Below, piece after piece: positions 10,227-29,722 of a DNA stretch of 29,800 nt. The translations under genes and the position numbers were made by a program. Each line of letters opens with the position of its first letter. Position 1 is the first letter of the stretch. The notes beneath the pieces are model-generated. The model had not been told where the DNA came from. It was given only the letters and a program-made list of their open reading frames with translations, and ran no database searches. The stretch comes from an uncultured Clostridia bacterium. Its GTDB lineage: Bacteria; Bacillota; Clostridia; Oscillospirales; Acutalibacteraceae. The stretch lies in assembly GCA_947168785.1 (NCBI GenBank), contig CAMVNL010000001.1, positions 1-29,800 of the forward strand, in the 5' to 3' direction.

Positions 10227-12146
10227 ATGAAAAAAAAGATTTATTTCACACAGGTAGGATTCGACTTTGGCGGTTCCGTGTATCTGCCCTATGCGGCGGG
10301 TACGATGATTTCCTATGCCTTGGCGCAGGAGGATCTTGCGGCGGAATACGAATTTCCGACGATTGTTTTTCGTCGGGAGAAGATCGCGGCGGTGATGGAT
10401 AAAATTGAAAACCCGTATATCGCGGCTTTTTCGTGCAGCGTATGGAATATGGAATTCAACAAAACCATTGCGGCGCGGATCAAGGAACAATACCCAGATT
10501 GCTTAGTGGTTTTTGGCGGTCATTCGATCCGTGAAGACTCCCCAAAGCTGCTGGAGGAAGAGCCGTATGTCGATATCCTGATGTACGGGGAAGGAGAGCA
10601 GACGTTTGTCAATCTGCTGCGTGCCCTGCCCACCGGCGACCTGAGCGGCGTTCCCAATATTGCTTTCCGGCAGGGGGGAACGATCCATCTGACGGAACGG
10701 GCGTATTATTATGATCTTGCGAAGTATCCCTCCCCCTATTGCAGCGGCGTTCTTGACGCAATTGTCGACGCGGAGCCGGAGACGGATTTCCTTGCCGTTC
10801 TGGAAACGACCCGGGGCTGCCCCTATTCCTGCGCCTACTGCGACTGGTGCGCGGGGCACAAAATGCGGTTCTTCCCCATGGAAAAAGTGTTGGATGAGAT
10901 CCGTTGGCTGGCGGAGCACCGGGTGGAATATATCTTCTGCGGCGACTCCAACTTCGGTATGTTCGACCGGGACGTGGAGATCGCCAAAGCGCTGGTGGAA
11001 ACCAAACGGCAATACGGTTATCCCAAGGTTTTCCGCCCCTGTTATGAAAAAAACAGCGCGGACCGGGTGTTTGAAATCTGCCGGATCCTCAACTCCGAGG
11101 GGATGGACAAGGGCGCGACCATGGCCTATCAGACGCTCTCCCCGGAGGCGCTGAAAAATATCGGCAGAAAGAATCTGACGCTGGAGCACTTTTCCGATCT
11201 GGTCCGCCGCTACAATGAGGCGGGCATCCCCTGTTACTCTGAACTGATTCTCGGTCTGCCGGGGGAGACGAAGGAGAGCTTCTGCCGGGGTATCTGCCGT
11301 TTGTTGGAGAGCGGCCAGCACAACTCCCTGAGCGTTTACCACTGCGAGATGCTGCCAAACTCCGACATGTCGGATCCGGACTTTGTGCAAAAACACGGCA
11401 TTGAAGTAATCAAAGTACCGTTTAATCATATTCACAGCGCGATCAATCAGAGTGAAGAGATACAGGAATATTCCTACCTCGTCCGGGCAACCAACACCAT
11501 GAACCGGGACGACTGGGTGGGCGCCAATCTGTTCTCCGTCTGTATTCAGTGTTTCCACAGCCTCGGGCTGCTGCGGTGCTTTTCCATGTATCTGACGGCG
11601 GAGGGAATCGTCAGCTATTACGATTTCTTCCGGGACCTGCTGGAATATATTATGGTTTCGGACGGAAAAATCGGCTCTCTCTGGCGTTCCTTCCGAACAA
11701 AATATGAGAACTCTTTGACCGGCGACTGGAATTATCACCGTGACATTTTCGGGAACGTAACGTGGTTCTTTGAAGAGGGCGCCTTCTTGGAGTGTGTCTG
11801 TGATTTTGACGGTTTCTTTGCAGAGCTTGTTCCGTTTTTGCGCCGGTTTCCCATCAAACAGGATCTGTACGAAGAACTGGAGAGGTATCAGCGTACAATC
11901 GTGCGAAAGCCTCACGACAAAGAAACAACCTCGCAGTTTCGTTATGATTTTTATTCCTATTTTGAGAGGATTACCGACGGAGAAAGCGCGCTGCTGGAGC
12001 GGAAAGACATTGTGGTGACGGTCTGTCCGAATAAGGAATATGACGACGTTGCCGAATATGCCCGGGAAACGGTTTGGTATGGCCGACGTAAAGGCGCAAC
12101 TGTTTACCGGGGAAAGGAATTGTCGGTGCAGGGTTCTGATCTGTAG
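10227..12146 (+). CDS. Cobalamin (B12)-binding domain radical SAM protein, 'CDW' paralog family (639 aa)
   Basis: N-terminal B12-binding Rossmann features (YLPYAAG, FSCSVWN, VFGGH, GEGE), radical SAM motif TRGCPYSCAYCDWC, ELILGLPGET, and C-terminal YARETVWYGRR. Confidence 0.9.
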   Translation: MKKKIYFTQVGFDFGGSVYLPYAAGTMISYALAQEDLAAEYEFPTIVFRREKIAAVMDKIENPYIAAFSCSVWNMEFNKTIAARIKEQYPDCLVVFGGHSIREDSPKLLEEEPYVDILMYGEGEQTFVNLLRALPTGDLSGVPNIAFRQGGTIHLTERAYYYDLAKYPSPYCSGVLDAIVDAEPETDFLAVLETTRGCPYSCAYCDWCAGHKMRFFPMEKVLDEIRWLAEHRVEYIFCGDSNFGMFDRDVEIAKALVETKRQYGYPKVFRPCYEKNSADRVFEICRILNSEGMDKGATMAYQTLSPEALKNIGRKNLTLEHFSDLVRRYNEAGIPCYSELILGLPGETKESFCRGICRLLESGQHNSLSVYHCEMLPNSDMSDPDFVQKHGIEVIKVPFNHIHSAINQSEEIQEYSYLVRATNTMNRDDWVGANLFSVCIQCFHSLGLLRCFSMYLTAEGIVSYYDFFRDLLEYIMVSDGKIGSLWRSFRTKYENSLTGDWNYHRDIFGNVTWFFEEGAFLECVCDFDGFFAELVPFLRRFPIKQDLYEELERYQRTIVRKPHDKETTSQFRYDFYSYFERITDGESALLERKDIVVTVCPNKEYDDVAEYARETVWYGRRKGATVYRGKELSVQGSDL

Positions 12147-21673: not shown

Positions 21674-23557
21674 TTATAAAAACCATCGTGTTACATGGAG
21701 GATGTATCCTGCTTCTCCCTGCGTCATCTCATACTCACAGATTTGCTTATAAAAGGTGAGTTTCTCTTTTGCCCATGCTGTTTTCACAGGGTCGTCCAAA
21801 TAGTTCTCGAATGTGTAATTATCGTACAGTGGGATGTAAATGTACTCAGGGCGCCTTTCCGGGAGAAGCTCCCAGTAACGAACCGCACGGGTTTCACTAT
21901 CCATCTCCACATACCAGGTGTCATAACAGCCGAAGGGAAGATCTGCGTATAGGTAACAGAAAGCAAATAGTTCTGAAACATAAAACGGGCCGGTGCAATC
22001 TGCCTTGATTTCATCGATGTCTTTCAAAATGAAGTTATAGATCTCCTTGATGTGCGCGGTGGTATGGATGCCTTTGAAGGGGCCGTGATCAACAACGGCG
22101 GAGAGAGATTCCTTTTTTGTTGGGTTGGCGTAATGCTCAACAATCTGATAAAAACCTAATGCATAGACTCCGTAGCTTTCCCATGCAAAAAAGCAAATCA
22201 GGCAAACGGCCGCAATGGCAGAGCTGAGTTTTTTTCTGTGATATTTCTGATGTTCTTCTGTGTTTTTTTCAGAACAACGCTGTTCCGCGCGGATTTCTTT
22301 TAACACAGTGAAAAACATCGGTATCAGCTCGAAACAGGCAATGACACCGCAAAAACCGATTACGTGTTCAGACACGGTATCTATCAGCACGCTTGAAACA
22401 GCGCTTACCAACCAGACGCAAAACAGGCGTGGTTTTTTTTGTTCGCAAAGCAAATAACAGTTCAGTCCGAGAAAAAAAACAGGCGCGGAATGGTAATTAT
22501 AGTAATAAAGGTATGTGGGTGTATATGATTTTGACAACATCGGTATGCGGAGAATGATGAAGGCAGCGCAGAGATAGGCAGCGGCAAAGCAAACGCATGC
22601 CGCAGTAAACAGTTGCGCTTTCCGGTTTTTGTCTTTTCTCAATTTCTTTCTGTAAACAAGCGACAGGATTAAAACCGTAATGCCGAGAACGGGCGGCACA
22701 ACGCCATAGAATCGGAATGCTTGCCAAAGCTTAAAAAAGCTAAAAAAACTTCTTCCGCTTCCGCTGAAAAAGGAATATTCTGAGTCCGAAAACAATTCAG
22801 GGAAGATACGAAAGATTTCCGACGGTGCACTGCGACTTAACAGAAAAGCAAAAAACGCTGCGGCGGTAAGAAAGATGCCGACCGTAACCCAAAACCAGAC
22901 CTTGGGAAGCAGAATAAAGGAAAAATCATTAAAAAAGGGCTTTCCCTTTTTTCGGAAAAATGAGCCGCAAAAAAAGAGAATGCTCCACACAAAATACAAT
23001 ATTGCCAAAACCGGTTCTGCGAGTACCGTGCAGGCCAATACAACACCCGACAGAAGAAGAACCGGAACGGAGTATTGTTTATCTTTGAAAAACAACAGCG
23101 CACATAGTACTGCAAGCCCATGCAGAGACATGGAGTAATAGTTCAAAGTAATAATCGCCATAGGCATATTGGCGACAAACAGCACAACGGGGATCAGTCC
23201 CCCGATGCCGTATGGACGCATCTTTGCATATAGGAACCAATAAAGAATCAGATTAACTGCCAAACAAAAGAACCGGAGAGATATAATAATCCCCTCGGAG
23301 GAACCTGTTACCGTTGTGATCAGCCAATAGGGAAAGATCAGCAACACGGAGGAGAGCTGTTCAACGTGCCATTCGTCAATCAGCAAACGATCCCCCTTCA
23401 GTAATCTCTGGGGAATCGTATAATAAACGCATTCATCTTCTGAATCAATGCCCTGTGTCGCGGCATATATCAAATAGGTAAACAACGCAATACAAATCAC
23501 GAGTGCAACCAAGTCTGTACTGCGAAAGCCTTTCTTTTCGGTAAGCTTGTTTCTCAT
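21674..23557 (-). CDS. Polytopic membrane protein, putative GT-C (ArnT/GT39-like) glycosyltransferase with C-terminal soluble domain
   Basis: Acidic first external loop after TM1 (IDSEDECVYY...DEW), many TM helices, and a ~130-aa hydrophilic C-terminal domain. Confidence 0.6.
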   Translation of the reverse strand: MRNKLTEKKGFRSTDLVALVICIALFTYLIYAATQGIDSEDECVYYTIPQRLLKGDRLLIDEWHVEQLSSVLLIFPYWLITTVTGSSEGIIISLRFFCLAVNLILYWFLYAKMRPYGIGGLIPVVLFVANMPMAIITLNYYSMSLHGLAVLCALLFFKDKQYSVPVLLLSGVVLACTVLAEPVLAILYFVWSILFFCGSFFRKKGKPFFNDFSFILLPKVWFWVTVGIFLTAAAFFAFLLSRSAPSEIFRIFPELFSDSEYSFFSGSGRSFFSFFKLWQAFRFYGVVPPVLGITVLILSLVYRKKLRKDKNRKAQLFTAACVCFAAAYLCAAFIILRIPMLSKSYTPTYLYYYNYHSAPVFFLGLNCYLLCEQKKPRLFCVWLVSAVSSVLIDTVSEHVIGFCGVIACFELIPMFFTVLKEIRAEQRCSEKNTEEHQKYHRKKLSSAIAAVCLICFFAWESYGVYALGFYQIVEHYANPTKKESLSAVVDHGPFKGIHTTAHIKEIYNFILKDIDEIKADCTGPFYVSELFAFCYLYADLPFGCYDTWYVEMDSETRAVRYWELLPERRPEYIYIPLYDNYTFENYLDDPVKTAWAKEKLTFYKQICEYEMTQGEAGYILHVTRWFL

Positions 23558-23591: not shown

Positions 23592-25094
23592 CTATTTCCT
23601 GAATTGAAAATGAAAACCGTATTTTTTGCGGATCCGTGGGAAAAACAAGGCGTTGGAAACGGTGATAACGGTGAATTTAGCGGAATAAAATACCCCACGC
23701 AGCCATTGGTTGAACTGCATGGTGCGGATATTCATCAGAATCGTCTTTAATGATTCAAGCGCAAAACTGGAACTTTTTTCTTTTTTCGTGCCCGGATTGC
23801 GGGAAAACAGATCCTGGAACAAAAAACAGGAACGGATTACGCGGTAATCCCGGTCCGGCACCTCGCTGAAGGAAGAGTAGATTTTTTCGATCAGCGCGCC
23901 ATCGCGCAGCGCTTCCAGCGTCTTCGGCGGATCGTAAAGTCCCTCGCGTACCACCTGATCGTACAGCACGCTTTTTTCAAACGGAGCAAAATAATGAATG
24001 CTCAAAAGGTTGGTCGGGAGCGACTGGATATACTGCACGGTATCTCTCAGATCCTGCTCTGTCTCATGCGGAAAGTTGAAAATGAAGGAGATATTGTAAA
24101 TCATGCCGACGTCGCGGCAATTCTGAAGCGTCGGCGCGACCAGATCATAGGGCAAATGCTTGTTCGCGATTTTCGCGAGATGCCCGGGCGGCGCCTCAAT
24201 GCCGAAGAAGACCCAGCGGCAGCCGTTATCGTACATCTCTTGGATGTCCTCTTTTTTCAGCACGCCGATGCGCGTCTGGCAGCCCCAGATGAAGGAGAGA
24301 TTCCGTTCCCTCATCTGCCTGTAAAAATCCTCTCGTTCGGATTTTGTTACGCCCCAAAGCTCATCCGCGAAATAGACCGTTTCCAGCCCGTGGTTTTTGA
24401 CCAGGTATTCCACCTCGTCCAAAAAGTCGGCTACTGGCCGTACGCGCCGTTTGCATTTGTGAAAATAGGGGTTGAAGCAGAAAGCGCAGTTGCCCGTACA
24501 CCCTTTGGACAGATACAGATACGCCATGTTCTCATAGCAGTAACAGGGCTGAAAATACGCTTTTATATCGGGCAGCAACGTAAAATCCGTCGGGCCCAAC
24601 AGCGAAAGATCCATAAAAGGCTCTTCCGGCGTCAGAACGATGTCTCCGTTTTCCGCGCGGTAAGCGATACCGTTGACCTGACGCGGGTCTTCGCCGTTTT
24701 CCATCGCGTTCATCAGATTCAGCCAGACCTGCTCCCCCTCGCCGATGGTGATGTAGTCTGCTTTCCCTTCTCCTAATATGATTTCCGGAACGGTAGAGGC
24801 GTACGTGCCTCCCACGATAACGGGGATGTTCTTTGTCCGGAAATAATCGCCGATAACGATCATGTCGGGGATCGTCATGTTGGAGATCAGTGAAATTCCT
24901 ATCACGTCCGGATGGTAGCGTTCATATACGGAATCCAGCGGTTCAGAATAAAGAATGCGGTCAACGATTGACACCTGATGTCCGTGCCGGTTCAGATAGG
25001 TCGCAATGGAGAGCTGCCCCAGAGGAAATCCGCTCATCCTTTGATAGGACAGGGATTTCGGATCGTAATTCGGATGAAACAATAAGGCTCTCAT
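23592..25094 (-). CDS. Cobalamin-dependent radical SAM protein (class B methyltransferase-like, distinct from the CDW paralogs)
   Basis: PLGQLSIATYL, VGGTYAS, GEGE, SKGCTGNCAFCFNP, YFADELW, VFFGIEA; 500 aa. Confidence 0.9.
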   Translation of the reverse strand: MRALLFHPNYDPKSLSYQRMSGFPLGQLSIATYLNRHGHQVSIVDRILYSEPLDSVYERYHPDVIGISLISNMTIPDMIVIGDYFRTKNIPVIVGGTYASTVPEIILGEGKADYITIGEGEQVWLNLMNAMENGEDPRQVNGIAYRAENGDIVLTPEEPFMDLSLLGPTDFTLLPDIKAYFQPCYCYENMAYLYLSKGCTGNCAFCFNPYFHKCKRRVRPVADFLDEVEYLVKNHGLETVYFADELWGVTKSEREDFYRQMRERNLSFIWGCQTRIGVLKKEDIQEMYDNGCRWVFFGIEAPPGHLAKIANKHLPYDLVAPTLQNCRDVGMIYNISFIFNFPHETEQDLRDTVQYIQSLPTNLLSIHYFAPFEKSVLYDQVVREGLYDPPKTLEALRDGALIEKIYSSFSEVPDRDYRVIRSCFLFQDLFSRNPGTKKEKSSSFALESLKTILMNIRTMQFNQWLRGVFYSAKFTVITVSNALFFPRIRKKYGFHFQFRK

Positions 25095-25139: not shown

Positions 25140-28100
25140 TTATGAGCAGAATCGAAATTCAGATACAGGGGCGTAATGGTTGCTGGAGTAATCGGTTTCT
25201 CTCCGGTTTCGACCATACCACACGGTTTCACGCGCAAGCTGCGCGAACGAGGATACAGGTGCGGGATCCGTTACGGTAAGATTTATCCGCCTGTTTACAA
25301 GAGATGCAGGCTCATTTTTATAGATTTGGTTGAAATATGTGTAGAAATCATAATCGGAAACGATGGTAATTTGTTTCTGATTGATTTTTTTGATAATATC
25401 ATGCTGGTAATCGAATAGCGCAGTCAACACGGGAGATGGGCCGACACGGGCTTCAAGCCAACTCCGTATTTCCCGATAAAAACCGGGGAGATGTTGATAG
25501 GCTTCTAAAAATAGAATCTCGTCGAAGCCCCACAGCAGCCCATCGGTATTTGGCAGCGGCGCCACAAAGGAGTTTGTTTGTTGCAATACGCCGCAGCATA
25601 AGCCATATATCGTATCGTGCAACTGTCCTAACAAGCTATCGGGCGATTGCCTGGCGTAATCGATCAAGTCCCGGTAAAACGATACATAGGGATATCCGAG
25701 CTCATAACGGCAATAGATGGCAATTGCCCGTAAAAGGCCCAGGTTGTGCAATCCCTGTACATAGTTGGAGAACACGTTGGCGCGAACCCAGTCCGTTTCG
25801 TCCATGGAATAGGTGGCGACGATATAATCGCCGTATTCCGTAATTTCGCTTTCTTGATTCTGGGCGGAGGAGTGTATGACGTGAAACGGGATGCGGATGC
25901 TTTTGATTTGGTATTTATTGATATACCACGGCTGCCCCATTTCCGAATTCGGCAACAACTCACATGGATAAGCGTTTACCGCGAAATGCTGACCGTTTTC
26001 CAGCATAGCGCACAGACCGTCGCAGAAGCTGTCGTAGGTTTCGCCGGGCAGGCCGATGATCAGCTCGGAATAGGTGGAGATCCGGTTTTCGTTGTATCGG
26101 AGCATCAACCGGCGGAAATCCTCTGTGGAGATGTTCTTCCTGCCGACGTTGGCCAACACCTCAGGATTCATGCTCTGGAAGGAAACTGTCATCGCCTTGT
26201 CAAGACCGTTTTCCACCAGTTTCTTGCCGATGTCGAATACGAAATCGAATTTGTTTTTGGTAAAGAAGACCCGGAAGACCTTGGGGTATCCGTATCGCTT
26301 TTTGCTTTCGGCCACGTAATCCATGATCTCGGCGTCGCGGCTGAAGAGGCAGAAGTTGGCGTCCGCGCAGTAGACGAACTCGATTTTATGCCGGACGAAC
26401 CAGTCGATCTCCGCCTTGACCCGCTCCATCGGGAAGAGGCGCACCTTCGATTTCAGGGAGCTCCAGTCGCAGAAGGAGCAGGAGTTGGGGCAGCCCCGGT
26501 TGCTTTCCAGCAGCGCGGAAAAGGCAACGTCGTCCTGTAGCAGGTCGTCAAATACGCCGGTCAGGTAGGGGGAGGGATAATCCGTGCCCGTCTGGGGCGC
26601 GTAGGAGGTGGTTTGTACCGTACCGTTTTTGTCGCGGAAGGAGATATTGGGGATCTCCGCCAGCGGGCTGCCACTGTGCAGCGCACGCATCAGGTCTGCG
26701 GTGGGCTCTTCGCCGAAGCGGTGGATCAGGAAGTCGATATAGGGATAGCGCGTCAGGAACGCGCCGTCGGCGGAGATGCTGTGCCCGCCGAAGGCGACGT
26801 AGCAGTCCGGGTAGCGCGTCTTGACCGCGGCGGCCGCGGCCTTGTCGTACTCCGCGTTCCACACCGAGCATGAGAACATCACCATGTAAGGATCGACCAA
26901 CTCGTCCACCAGCTCCCGGATGGGTTTGCGGTAGTAGATGATCTTCTGAAACGCGTAGGCGTCCGCGATAGTCTTATCCTGCATACAGTAGGCCTGGATG
27001 CAGCCCACGGCGTAGGGGAAGTAGACGGTTTTTTTGTCGGAACCGTACATGCTGTTAGCTTGTATGAAGTAGACGTTTTTTTTGGCCGGGTACGTCACCG
27101 TTACGTTTTTTTTGTCCAGCAGCCGGATCGGCGCTCCTTTCTTTTTGCCGAAAAGGATGACTCGTTTTCCGTAATCGAACCAGTTGTCAACCGGGTCCGG
27201 GATCGCGACGGTCAGTTCTGTCGTCTTCTTTTCCAACGGCGAGTAACCGGTGGGGTCCGCCGTGGCGAAATAGGTATAAAAATCGTAAGCGAAGCGGGCG
27301 GTTTCCCGTTCCTGCCCCAGAAGGCGGATGGCGAACTTCTGATAGCGGCACAGCTCGTCGAACACCGCCGGGGCCACGTCGTACCCGGCGAGGAACGGAC
27401 GGATCTCCTCCCAGAAACGTTCGTAGTCAGCGGCGATCTCCATAAACAGGCCCTCGTCGAAATACCAGCCCACGTCGCCGAATTTTGCGTTGACGTAGGC
27501 CCACTCGCCCTTGGAAAGGTCGGCGCCCCAGGCCCGGAACCGATGGAGCATCTCGTGCAGGAAGGTCCCGTCGGCTTCCTCCGCAAAGCGGACCAGCGAC
27601 GAATAGAAATCGTAATAGGAGACGTGCAACTCCCGCCGCAGGTACACGGCAAAATACCGCAGCATGCCGATGTGGTGGAAGCACTGGACGAACATGACGA
27701 ACATCAGCGCGTCCAGCATCTCATCGTAGGTCATGGTGTTGGTCTGCACCACCATGTCCACGTATTCAAAAATCTCGTTTTCCACGTTGGGGGAAACGTG
27801 GATGCAGCTGAGCTTCACGTGCTCGGTTTTGATGCCGTGTTTGGCGATATAGGCAGGGTTGCCCATCAGGGCGTTGGGAAACACCTGACAGTCGTAGACC
27901 GTCATGGCGTTGTGCTGACCGGCCTCCACCAGTTGGCAGACGCCCCGGCAGAAGCTCTCCTTCGTCTCGCCGGGCAGGCCGAGAATCAGCTCCGTATAGG
28001 TGGGGATGCCCACGTCGTTGTACCGTTTGATCAGGTCGGAAAAGGCCTCCACCGTAAAGTTCTGGCGGCCGATGTTCTTCAGCGCCTCGTCGCAAAGCGT

Positions 28101-29000
28101 CTGGTAGGCCAGCGTGATGGCCTTGTTGAGGCCGTTTTCCACAAAGAGTTTGGAGATATAAAAGACGTTTTCGTTACTGTTCTTGGCGTAGCAGGCGTTG
28201 AAGATATGCGGGTAGCCGTATTTTTTCTTCAGCCCCACCACAAATTCCGCGATCTCCCTGTCCCGGGGCAGGATGCCGAAATTGCCGTCGGCGCAGTAGA
28301 CGTAGTCGATCTTGTGCTTCGCGCACCACTCGATCTCCGCAAAAACCTTTTCCAGCGGGAAGCAGCGAATCTTGCCGGTGAAGCACCAGTCGCAGTAGGC
28401 GCACTGGTAGGGGCAGCCCCGGTTGGTTTCGATGGTGATGCAGAAATCCACCCCGGGGGAGGCTTCCAGGATCTCGTCAAAATACCCCAGCAGATAGGGG
28501 GAGGGGTAATCCAGCTCCGGGTCGGGCTCTTTATGGGTAAAGCGCAGCGCGCCGTTTTCCCGGTAGGCGATATTGGGCACGCCGGAGAGATCCCCGTCCC
28601 GGTCCAGCGCCAGCAGCAGCTCCTTGAAGGGGCGCTCGCCTTCGCCCAGCATAAAGACGTCCGCGTAGGGGTAGCGCTCCGCCAGCGGCTGCTGCGCGGA
28701 GATGTCGTGGCCGCCGAAAACAATCAGGCAGTCGGGGTATTTTTCCCGCAGGGCGGCGGCCAGCAGGCGGTTGTATTCCGCCGTCCACATATAGCAGGTG
28801 AACGCCACAACGTCGGGATCGACCAGCTTGGCCAGCGCCTCGTCGATGGGGTCGCGTTTCCAGATCATGCCGGCGCAGCGGTAGGAAGACGCGATCCGTT
28901 CGTCCGCCCATGCGTACGCGGCCAGACAGCCGGATGCGTAAGGCAGATATTCTGATTTTCCGACCGATTTGTTCGCCAGAACAAAATACACGTTTTTCAC
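25140..29000 (-). CDS. Tandem fusion of two complete B12-binding/radical SAM 'CDW' modules (639 + 647 aa)
   Basis: Two B12 domains (MKNVYF..YLPYASG; KKNVYF..YFPYAVG), two intact motifs (RGCPYQCAYCDWC; RGCPNSCSFCDWS), two ELI(L/I)GLPGET. Junction at ~27083. GTG start overlaps the GT2 stop (GTGA). Confidence 0.9.
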   Translation of the reverse strand: MKNVYFVLANKSVGKSEYLPYASGCLAAYAWADERIASSYRCAGMIWKRDPIDEALAKLVDPDVVAFTCYMWTAEYNRLLAAALREKYPDCLIVFGGHDISAQQPLAERYPYADVFMLGEGERPFKELLLALDRDGDLSGVPNIAYRENGALRFTHKEPDPELDYPSPYLLGYFDEILEASPGVDFCITIETNRGCPYQCAYCDWCFTGKIRCFPLEKVFAEIEWCAKHKIDYVYCADGNFGILPRDREIAEFVVGLKKKYGYPHIFNACYAKNSNENVFYISKLFVENGLNKAITLAYQTLCDEALKNIGRQNFTVEAFSDLIKRYNDVGIPTYTELILGLPGETKESFCRGVCQLVEAGQHNAMTVYDCQVFPNALMGNPAYIAKHGIKTEHVKLSCIHVSPNVENEIFEYVDMVVQTNTMTYDEMLDALMFVMFVQCFHHIGMLRYFAVYLRRELHVSYYDFYSSLVRFAEEADGTFLHEMLHRFRAWGADLSKGEWAYVNAKFGDVGWYFDEGLFMEIAADYERFWEEIRPFLAGYDVAPAVFDELCRYQKFAIRLLGQERETARFAYDFYTYFATADPTGYSPLEKKTTELTVAIPDPVDNWFDYGKRVILFGKKKGAPIRLLDKKNVTVTYPAKKNVYFIQANSMYGSDKKTVYFPYAVGCIQAYCMQDKTIADAYAFQKIIYYRKPIRELVDELVDPYMVMFSCSVWNAEYDKAAAAAVKTRYPDCYVAFGGHSISADGAFLTRYPYIDFLIHRFGEEPTADLMRALHSGSPLAEIPNISFRDKNGTVQTTSYAPQTGTDYPSPYLTGVFDDLLQDDVAFSALLESNRGCPNSCSFCDWSSLKSKVRLFPMERVKAEIDWFVRHKIEFVYCADANFCLFSRDAEIMDYVAESKKRYGYPKVFRVFFTKNKFDFVFDIGKKLVENGLDKAMTVSFQSMNPEVLANVGRKNISTEDFRRLMLRYNENRISTYSELIIGLPGETYDSFCDGLCAMLENGQHFAVNAYPCELLPNSEMGQPWYINKYQIKSIRIPFHVIHSSAQNQESEITEYGDYIVATYSMDETDWVRANVFSNYVQGLHNLGLLRAIAIYCRYELGYPYVSFYRDLIDYARQSPDSLLGQLHDTIYGLCCGVLQQTNSFVAPLPNTDGLLWGFDEILFLEAYQHLPGFYREIRSWLEARVGPSPVLTALFDYQHDIIKKINQKQITIVSDYDFYTYFNQIYKNEPASLVNRRINLTVTDPAPVSSFAQLARETVWYGRNRRETDYSSNHYAPVSEFRFCS

Positions 29001-29722
29001 TGTGACGACTCCGTTGTGAGCTTTTTTGTATCCGTAAAACGGATTTTCAGGATCATATAATAGTAGAGCAGCGCCGCGCCGAAGGTCCGGTGAGAGCGCC
29101 CTTCTTCTCTTGCGACGTTTTTGGTGGGCACTTCATAGAATGGAACGCCCAGCCGCAGCGGCTTGAACACCATTTCCGTGGTGAACTCAAAACCGCTTCG
29201 CTCCCACCGGATGGAGCGGTAAAGTGCGACCGGCGCGATTTGCGTTGGGTTTGTAAATTCCGTCAGATCGGAACGGTACAACAATCCAAAGCAACGCTGG
29301 GATATCTTGTTGAGCAGCTTCTTCAGCTGACCGTAGTCGTCAAAGCCCTCCGGGTGCAAAAAACGGCTGATCTTCACAATTGCCTCCGGATGTACCTGCG
29401 ATAAACGCAGCATCTCCGGGAAGGAGGCGACGTCGGTTGCCTCGTCCGCGCTCCAGACCACCATGTGGGTGCCCTTGACCTCCCGGATCGCCGCCTGTAT
29501 CGCGTCACCGAAACCTTTGCCGGGCTGATACAGCCAGCGGTAGCCGGGGCGGGCGCAGAGCGTATCCACGGTTTTCAGGCAGGCGTCGGTACAATTCCGG
29601 GCCAGAACGAACAGGTATTCGCAGGCGGCGGAGTAAGCGTCGAGCTTATGAAAGGTCCTCTCCAGCGAGAAGGTCTCGTCGACGGCGCAGATGACGATGG
29701 AAAGGCGGTAGGTGTCAGGCAT
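28997..29722 (-). CDS. Glycosyltransferase family 2, DPM1/ArnC-like (putative polyprenol-phosphate sugar transferase)
   Basis: LSIVICAVDE, GKGFGDAI, VVWSADEATD (DxD-like), ISRF, GFEFTTEM, EVP...REEGRS; 241 aa with no TM. Confidence 0.85.
   Translation of the reverse strand: MPDTYRLSIVICAVDETFSLERTFHKLDAYSAACEYLFVLARNCTDACLKTVDTLCARPGYRWLYQPGKGFGDAIQAAIREVKGTHMVVWSADEATDVASFPEMLRLSQVHPEAIVKISRFLHPEGFDDYGQLKKLLNKISQRCFGLLYRSDLTEFTNPTQIAPVALYRSIRWERSGFEFTTEMVFKPLRLGVPFYEVPTKNVAREEGRSHRTFGAALLYYYMILKIRFTDTKKLTTESSQ

Follow-up and report, generated by a model that had tools for sequence, protein, structure and literature searches.

A tandem fusion of two predicted TokK/CysS-type cobalamin-dependent radical SAM enzymes in a glycan-type locus of an uncultured Clostridia bacterium

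Cobalamin-dependent radical S-adenosylmethionine (SAM) methylases are difficult enzymes to express and investigate, and those characterised so far in the clade of interest here (TokK, ThnK and CysS) come from antibiotic pathways. According to the structural papers, the clade is recognised by a tryptophan beneath the cobalt (Trp76 in TokK), the GG and GE motifs of the cobalamin (Cbl) domain, Arg204, the cysteine loop followed by Trp215, the D-A-N 'GGE' motif, the ribose Gln312 and a GxIxGxxE motif. In both TokK and CysS, the cobalamin and C-terminal domains form a channel that takes up a small head group with its long pantetheine tail, and in TokK the substrate carboxylate is bound by Arg280. 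In this study we analysed a stretch of 29,800 nucleotides (nt) from an uncultured rumen bacterium of the Clostridia (assembly GCA_947168785.1, contig CAMVNL010000001.1), in the following text called the window. Its open reading frame (ORF) at 25140-29000 is a genuine fusion of two putative paralogous TokK/CysS-type cobalamin-dependent radical SAM enzymes, and the locus thereby offers a natural covalent pair of two such proteins. The gene, its parts and a stand-alone paralog in the window are located as follows:

25140..29000, minus strand: whole fused gene, 1286 amino acids (aa) with a GTG start; the identical protein on record is P0003
27084..29000, minus strand: module 1, residues 1-639 (639 aa), with a Cbl-binding Rossmann domain, a radical SAM barrel and a TokK-type C-terminal helical domain
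25140..27083, minus strand: module 2, residues 640-1286 (647 aa) plus stop, with the same three-domain build as module 1
27033..27140, minus strand: junction, at which module 1 ends in …FGKKKGAPIRLLDKKNVTVTYPA and continues in frame with KKNVYF of module 2, with two A8 runs and one A7 run
10227..12146, plus strand: stand-alone paralog, 639 aa, 45% identical to module 1

The frame is open for 1286 codons from the GTG, which is preceded by GGAG at approximately 10 nt and overlaps the stop of the upstream glycosyltransferase family 2 (GT2) gene as GTGA, while the database record P0003 is identical to the window protein, with Met at position 1. Module 2 sets in with KKNVYF at residue 640 (nt 27083). 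In BLASTP the two modules are 41% identical over 628 columns (E 9e-165) and collinear from their first residues to the C-terminal tail. A preliminary description, made from the DNA letters before our analysis, had proposed that two full B12-binding radical SAM modules are joined here, that the split lies at about 27083 with module 1 as long as the paralog at 10227, and that the join falls on an old gene boundary. All three proposals were borne out: the modules (639 + 647 aa) are related end to end and both carry PF02310, PF04055 and CxxxCxxC, module 1 and the paralog both count 639 aa, and unfused relatives stop and start exactly at the join, with an ATGA or a 14-nt overlap.

As for the identity of each module, PF02310 (B12-binding) and PF04055 (radical SAM) match both of them, and the best curated family for both is the KedN5-family C-methyltransferase of NCBIfam (NF033712), with 246.7 bits for module 1, 230.7 for module 2 and 473.7 for the whole protein. 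Since these scores are far under the cut-off of 700, which was not reached, the modules are to be classed, by profile, as relatives and not as members of the KedN5 family. When searched with phmmer against the PDB, each module matched TokK at about 320 bits, with CysS second-best at about 162 bits. The match of module 1 to TokK (7kdx; E 2.4e-96, query residues 5-579) reaches TokK residue 609 and so spans the TokK-specific C-terminal domain; the corresponding value for module 2 is E 3.4e-94. The AlphaFold2 model, built on a 17-row alignment for residues 1-1200 of 1286, has a mean predicted local distance difference test (pLDDT) of 87, with a predicted template modelling score (pTM) of 0.56 despite this high local confidence. 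With the model as query, Foldseek placed TokK 7kdx at the top, with a template modelling score (TM) of 0.86 normalised on the 658-residue TokK chain, and CysS next; the TokK-type helical C-terminal domain is therefore seen both in the phmmer alignment of module 1 and in the fold comparison.

The window protein is by no means a solitary case. A length-restricted homolog search (707-2251 aa), and an exhaustive profile-free search of 1.84 billion representatives that added P0124, yielded 16 further fused representatives from other assemblies (38-84% identity), all of which read in frame through the junction, so that 17 are available with the window protein. Full-length homologs were found at 76-84% identity (P0004 to P0007), at 55-57% (P0009 to P0012) and at 38-45% (P0014 to P0020), and most of the fused clusters that were looked up are present in several independent assemblies. 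The linker at the junction varies from 0 to about 30 residues, and the second module always starts with (K/R)K(N/H/K)(V/I/L)Y. The closest genome matches are the rumen metagenome-assembled genomes (MAGs) RUG13427 and RUG12807, labelled Ruminococcaceae bacterium (Oscillospiraceae in the taxonomy of the loci), the first of which carries the same 1286-aa, GTG-started gene. The homopolymer runs at window 27040-27115 (A8, A8, A7) encode Lys-Lys pairs around the junction and are not kept in RUG13427 or RUG12807; a phase-variable switch formed by the A8 runs was considered and rejected for this lack of conservation.

Two side observations come from the same searches. Many TokK-like relatives of 790-1430 aa (among them P0021, P0022, P0025-P0030, P0032 and P0033) contain inserted intein and homing-endonuclease domains (PF14890, PF14528, PF13403). 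P0222 (1173 aa) is another double B12-binding/radical SAM protein of different make-up, in which only the second unit, around residues 520-1000, aligned with module 2.

The cofactor motifs of the two modules are found at these positions:

28392..28415, minus strand: module 1 cluster motif, C196-x3-C200-x2-C203, then D-W205 (position of TokK Trp215)
26469..26492, minus strand: module 2 cluster motif, C837-x3-C841-x2-C844, then D-W846
28635..28646, minus strand: module 1 GEGE, residues 119-122, in which the last GE is the family-invariant Cbl-domain 'GE motif'
26709..26720, minus strand: module 2 RFGE, residues 761-764, with the invariant GE kept

A motif survey was done on an alignment of 84 modules and stand-alone relatives, including the 17 fused proteins. 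In 17/17 fused proteins, both modules contain the equivalents of Trp76 and Trp215, the GG and GE motifs, NRGCP, CxxxCxxC, D-(A/G)-N, GLPGET and the ribose Gln. Invariant in the fused family are the tryptophan under the cobalt (W72 in module 1, W714 in module 2), the tryptophan after the cysteine motif (W205, W846), and FGGH and xxGE in both modules. The 'GGE' position reads D-G-N in module 1 and D-A-N in module 2, the ribose Gln corresponds to Q300 and Q942, and LGLPGET and NRGCP stand in both. The intact CxxxCxxC that the preliminary description had read in each module is thus confirmed. It had also pointed to the change of GEGE into RFGEEP in module 2, and here the letters are as described (GEGERP in module 1, RFGEEP in module 2), but not their meaning as a divergence of the cofactor site: only the last Gly-Glu is invariant among the 84 sequences, in agreement with the published 'GE motif' of the Cbl domain (PMC9204698), and other members have DEGE, NEGE, YEGE, NGGE, GSGE or LWGE. 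Because only this last Gly-Glu is invariant in the family, the step from GEGE to RFGE should be read as no sign of a failing cobalamin site.

When codons were compared with those of two related MAGs, the ratio of nonsynonymous to synonymous substitution rates (dN/dS) was 0.09-0.12 for each module. As all classes of cobalamin, [4Fe-4S] and SAM residues are kept and both modules are under purifying selection, neither appears degenerate in its cofactor-holding residues, and neither appears to be decaying. On the substrate side the modules differ: Asn268 of module 1 and Arg910 of module 2 align with TokK Arg280.

The history of the fusion was followed in a maximum-likelihood tree that combined every first and every second module with 44 stand-alone relatives. 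The modules do not group by position (first or second), and at least five or six different partner combinations are resolved, as listed here:

Type A: the window protein, P0004-7 and P0009-12
Type B: P0014
Type C: P0015
Type D: P0017-20, with the second module in the clade of the first module of P0015
Type E: P0016
Type F: P0124, fused counterpart of an unfused pair on another contig (C2) of the window's own genome

In the approximately unbiased (AU) test a single clade was rejected for all first modules (p 3.6e-6) as well as for all second modules (p 3e-33). On the strength of these trees, different paralog pairs have fused independently at least five or six times, and the architecture of the window protein is accordingly not unique in its family. 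Type F lets the event be followed at the DNA level. The second TokK-like pair of the window's genome (contig C2 of G000; L020 8527-12377, minus strand) is unfused with a 4-nt ATGA overlap and is flanked by very large ORFs (1486, 1157 and 913 aa); the two halves of P0124 pair in the tree with these adjacent paralogs, and a deletion of about 14 nt in P0124 removes the stop and brings the frames into register.

The opposite event can be seen in RUG12807, where the type-A modules are two genes (640 + 657 aa, 85% and 75% identical to the modules of the window). Compared with the window sequence, 23 nt are inserted that bring in a TAA stop and an ATG, leaving a 14-nt overlap between the genes. Both modules nest inside the fused clade with a Shimodaira-Hasegawa-like approximate likelihood ratio test (SH-aLRT) support of >=95, and therefore the split is a secondary fission. 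Since RUG12807 has re-split the gene, the covalent link is dispensable, with tight translational coupling retained.

A survey covered 151 genomes from the same family, with one genome for each genus and a second one for the window's genus; TokK-like matches at E <= 1e-100 turned up in nine, mostly as tandem separate genes, and the fused state is a minority. A 1311-aa 'open frame' in genome G119 was rejected as a fusion, being two same-frame ORFs with a stop between them. No module-1 gene lies next to P0123 (58% identity to module 2), which is a true solitary relative rather than a split fragment; the neighbours of P0123 are a GT2, another radical SAM enzyme and a DUF2142 membrane protein. All of this shows the fusion of neighbouring paralogs as an ordinary, reversible evolutionary event.

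The genes around the fused gene on the same strand are the following:

28997..29722, minus strand: small GT2 of 241 aa, weakly AglJ/dolichyl-phosphate-hexose-transferase-like; upstream, its stop overlapping the start of the fused gene
23592..25094, minus strand: B12-binding radical SAM protein of a different (MgmA/BchE-like) subgroup, 500 aa; downstream in the same operon
21674..23557, minus strand: 627-aa protein with no Pfam or NCBIfam match; its language-model look-alike clusters include some with minority PMT_2 (GT-C) members

The minus-strand operon thus runs from the small GT2 through the fused gene, the 500-aa radical SAM protein and the 627-aa protein to two further, unassigned proteins. 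It converges with a plus-strand arm that encodes a 2314-aa surface protein, the stand-alone paralog, a DegT aminotransferase, an SGNH protein and a carbamoyltransferase. For the small GT2 no sequence relative was found in the PDB, and an Rfam scan of the window gave no cobalamin riboswitch and no other RNA family. The loci of fused homologs (P0009, P0015 and P0019/L008) contain five to eight TokK-like radical SAM genes and small GT2s, together with SIS isomerase, GHMP kinase, NTP-transferase/HAD, 4,6-dehydratase-type, cupin and reductase genes. This gene set resembles the GDP-(6-deoxy)heptose pathway, which suggests a heptose-derived substrate in those organisms. In addition, there are natural fusions of a TokK-like B12-binding radical SAM protein (N-terminal) with a small GT2 (C-terminal), namely P0023 (876 aa) and P0031 (797 aa, 73 members); the same order of radical SAM and GT2 is mirrored by the genes at the right edge of the window.

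Because of the glycan-type neighbours, which include GT-C-like membrane proteins, the heptose-type loci and the radical SAM-GT2 fusions, the most likely substrate would be a carrier-linked sugar (on polyprenyl phosphate or a nucleotide) for the cell surface. Such a substrate would also fit the head-group-plus-tail binding logic of TokK and CysS.

Some observations on the related locus of RUG13427 (L009) should be added. Nucleotide identity to the window is about 96% in module 1 and about 90% in most of module 2, and drops abruptly to 65-70% from about 25,860-25,660 through the next gene (to about 23500); at the same place (window 25660-25860) the guanine-plus-cytosine (GC) fraction, about 0.58 before, declines to about 0.47. 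The pattern resembles that of a recombination breakpoint in the C-terminal (substrate-side) domain of module 2, as would be expected for a variable surface-glycan locus. A TokK-like gene upstream of the GT2 (L009 8238-10149) is broken into overlapping ORFs of 457 + 257 aa, by a frameshift or an assembly error, and a CotH-kinase gene lies further upstream.

Taking all of this together, we think it probable, if well short of certain, that the protein is a fused pair of C-methylases acting at two positions or stages of one carrier-linked surface-sugar intermediate, and that it arose by indel fusion of coupled neighbours. Each module would be equipped with a separate cobalamin site, [4Fe-4S]/SAM site and C-terminal substrate-side domain and, by analogy with every characterised member of the clade, would most likely methylate an unactivated carbon. 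One SAM would methylate cob(I)alamin to methylcobalamin, a second SAM on the [4Fe-4S] cluster would give the 5'-deoxyadenosyl radical that takes a hydrogen from the substrate, and the substrate radical would capture the methyl group from the cobalt of methylcobalamin. Because their substrate-side residues differ (Asn268 vs Arg910), the two modules probably methylate different carbons or act at successive stages of one pathway intermediate. The fusion itself could have come from a small indel at the overlapping stop and start of translationally coupled neighbours, which put both into one frame, and it would fix a 1:1 stoichiometry and proximity without being essential. The preliminary description went further and supposed two sequential radical steps on one substrate, possibly with channelling; this is consistent with the recurrent fusion and the translational coupling of paralog pairs, but the re-split gene of RUG12807 speaks against any need for the covalent link.

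Several points weigh against the proposed function. PF02310 gives 43 bits for module 1 and, for module 2 scored alone, 23.6 bits, which is under the Pfam gathering cut-off of 32.1. As both modules (247 and 231 bits) score far under the 700-bit cut-off of their nearest curated family, their chemistry is extrapolated from enzymes that are about 30% identical. The heptose genes of the homologous loci are absent from the window's 29.8-kb contig, and the shared substrate of the two modules is putative. Finally, as the modules are unlinked in RUG12807, the fusion itself may be near-neutral selectively.

The last point leads to the alternative that survives best, in which the two enzymes, although encoded in one locus, work independently on different intermediates or positions with no hand-over, and the fusion is a neutral or stoichiometric accident of an overlapping stop and start. 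The secondary fission nested in the fused clade would fit such a history, as would the fact that most relatives keep the paralogs as separate tandem genes and that different partner combinations are fused in different lineages. However, a single family has seen at least five or six fusions, and type A is kept down to 55% identity, which suggests a benefit of linkage; we therefore see the neutral account as possible but on the unlikely side.

A bolder extension of the C-methylase reading would be that the modules (fused here, coupled pairs elsewhere) form an obligate two-active-site unit that hands a carrier-linked sugar between its cobalamin/[4Fe-4S] sites and that, together with another four to eight TokK-like paralogs, decorates a cell-surface sugar with branched alkyl groups of several carbons. 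We consider this speculative and rather improbable. If true, it would imply a class of heavily C-methylated glycan and a use of iterative radical methylation that are as yet undescribed for envelope polymers.

It seems doubtful, more so than the two preceding possibilities, that the modules perform radical chemistry other than methylation, be it epimerisation, dehydration, ring rearrangement or the joining of two carbon centres by two radical sites in the manner of the lipid synthase GDGT-MAS. Class B radical SAM enzymes do include the non-methylases OxsB and BchE, and GDGT-MAS (MJ0619) uses two CxxxCxxC sites in one chain. Against this, the closest enzymes by both sequence and fold, TokK and CysS, are methylases, and the clade-specific tryptophans under the cobalt and after the cysteine motif are kept.

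Paralogous pseudo-enzyme partners are common in other enzyme families, and one module could likewise be a non-catalytic scaffold or a substrate-holding or regulatory partner. The candidate would be module 2, whose B12 domain scores lower in Pfam and which has RF where module 1 has the first GE, but the first two 'GEGE' positions vary in stand-alone members too, none of the 17 fused proteins has lost the cluster cysteines or the cobalamin and SAM motifs in either module, and dN/dS is about 0.1 in both, so that we find this very unlikely. An assembly or sequencing artefact, in which a homopolymer indel falsely joined two genes, might be suspected from the two A8 runs that flank the junction, the fragmented MAG (58% complete, 435 contigs) and the one split relative, but it is scarcely credible and appears to be ruled out because the same in-frame junction is conserved in many independent assemblies with linkers of differing sequence and length, and the split relative differs by a 23-nt insertion with its own stop and ATG and not by a 1-nt homopolymer slip.

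What the probable C-methylase pair has to offer lies mainly in two things: natural fused and split pairs as an experimental handle, and glycan loci rich in paralogous putative radical methylases. The same pair occurs naturally both split and fused, at 75-95% identity, and this is a ready-made experiment on the linkage. The fusion, taken alone an ordinary evolutionary event, is Rosetta-stone evidence that the paralogs of these loci work in pairs. There is evidence, too, that in rumen and gut Clostridia the clade has undergone an expansion within cell-surface sugar loci. A literature search of partial coverage gave no description of tandem or fused cobalamin-dependent radical SAM enzymes, or of B12-binding radical SAM enzymes in surface-glycan pathways.

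Compared with known systems, the tandem fusion is a new arrangement of a known kind of enzyme. The closest are TokK and ThnK, the carbapenem C6 alkylating methylases (PDB 7kdx, 7kdy), which have the same build of Rossmann Cbl domain, radical SAM barrel and helical C-terminal domain. TokK is about 30% identical to each module, with a TM of 0.86 over the TokK chain, and the equivalents of its Trp76, Arg204, CxxxCxxC-x-Trp215, D-A-N 'GGE', Gln312 and GxIxGxxE are kept in both. The substrate-binding Arg280 of TokK has an Arg counterpart in module 2 but an Asn in module 1. TokK is also a single module that works iteratively on a pantetheinylated carbapenam from an actinomycete antibiotic cluster, whereas in the window two diverged modules are fused in a Clostridia glycan-type locus. 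CysS, which iteratively turns an O-methyl into a branched alkyl group in cystobactamid (PDB 9n1b-d), and KedN5 (NF033712) belong to the same clade as the modules, and CysS shares with them the tryptophan-under-cobalt arrangement, but both are single-module proteins in another substrate context. GenK and GenD1 of the gentamicin pathway are class B radical SAM methylases that carry out cobalamin-dependent radical C-methylation of sugar carbons; they differ in being separate single-module enzymes of aminoglycoside clusters and are not among the close matches of the modules. GDGT-MAS (MJ0619) is alike in having two radical SAM active sites (CxxxCxxC) in one chain for one product and serves here as an analogy of architecture; it is without cobalamin domains and performs the C-C coupling of lipid tails rather than methylation.

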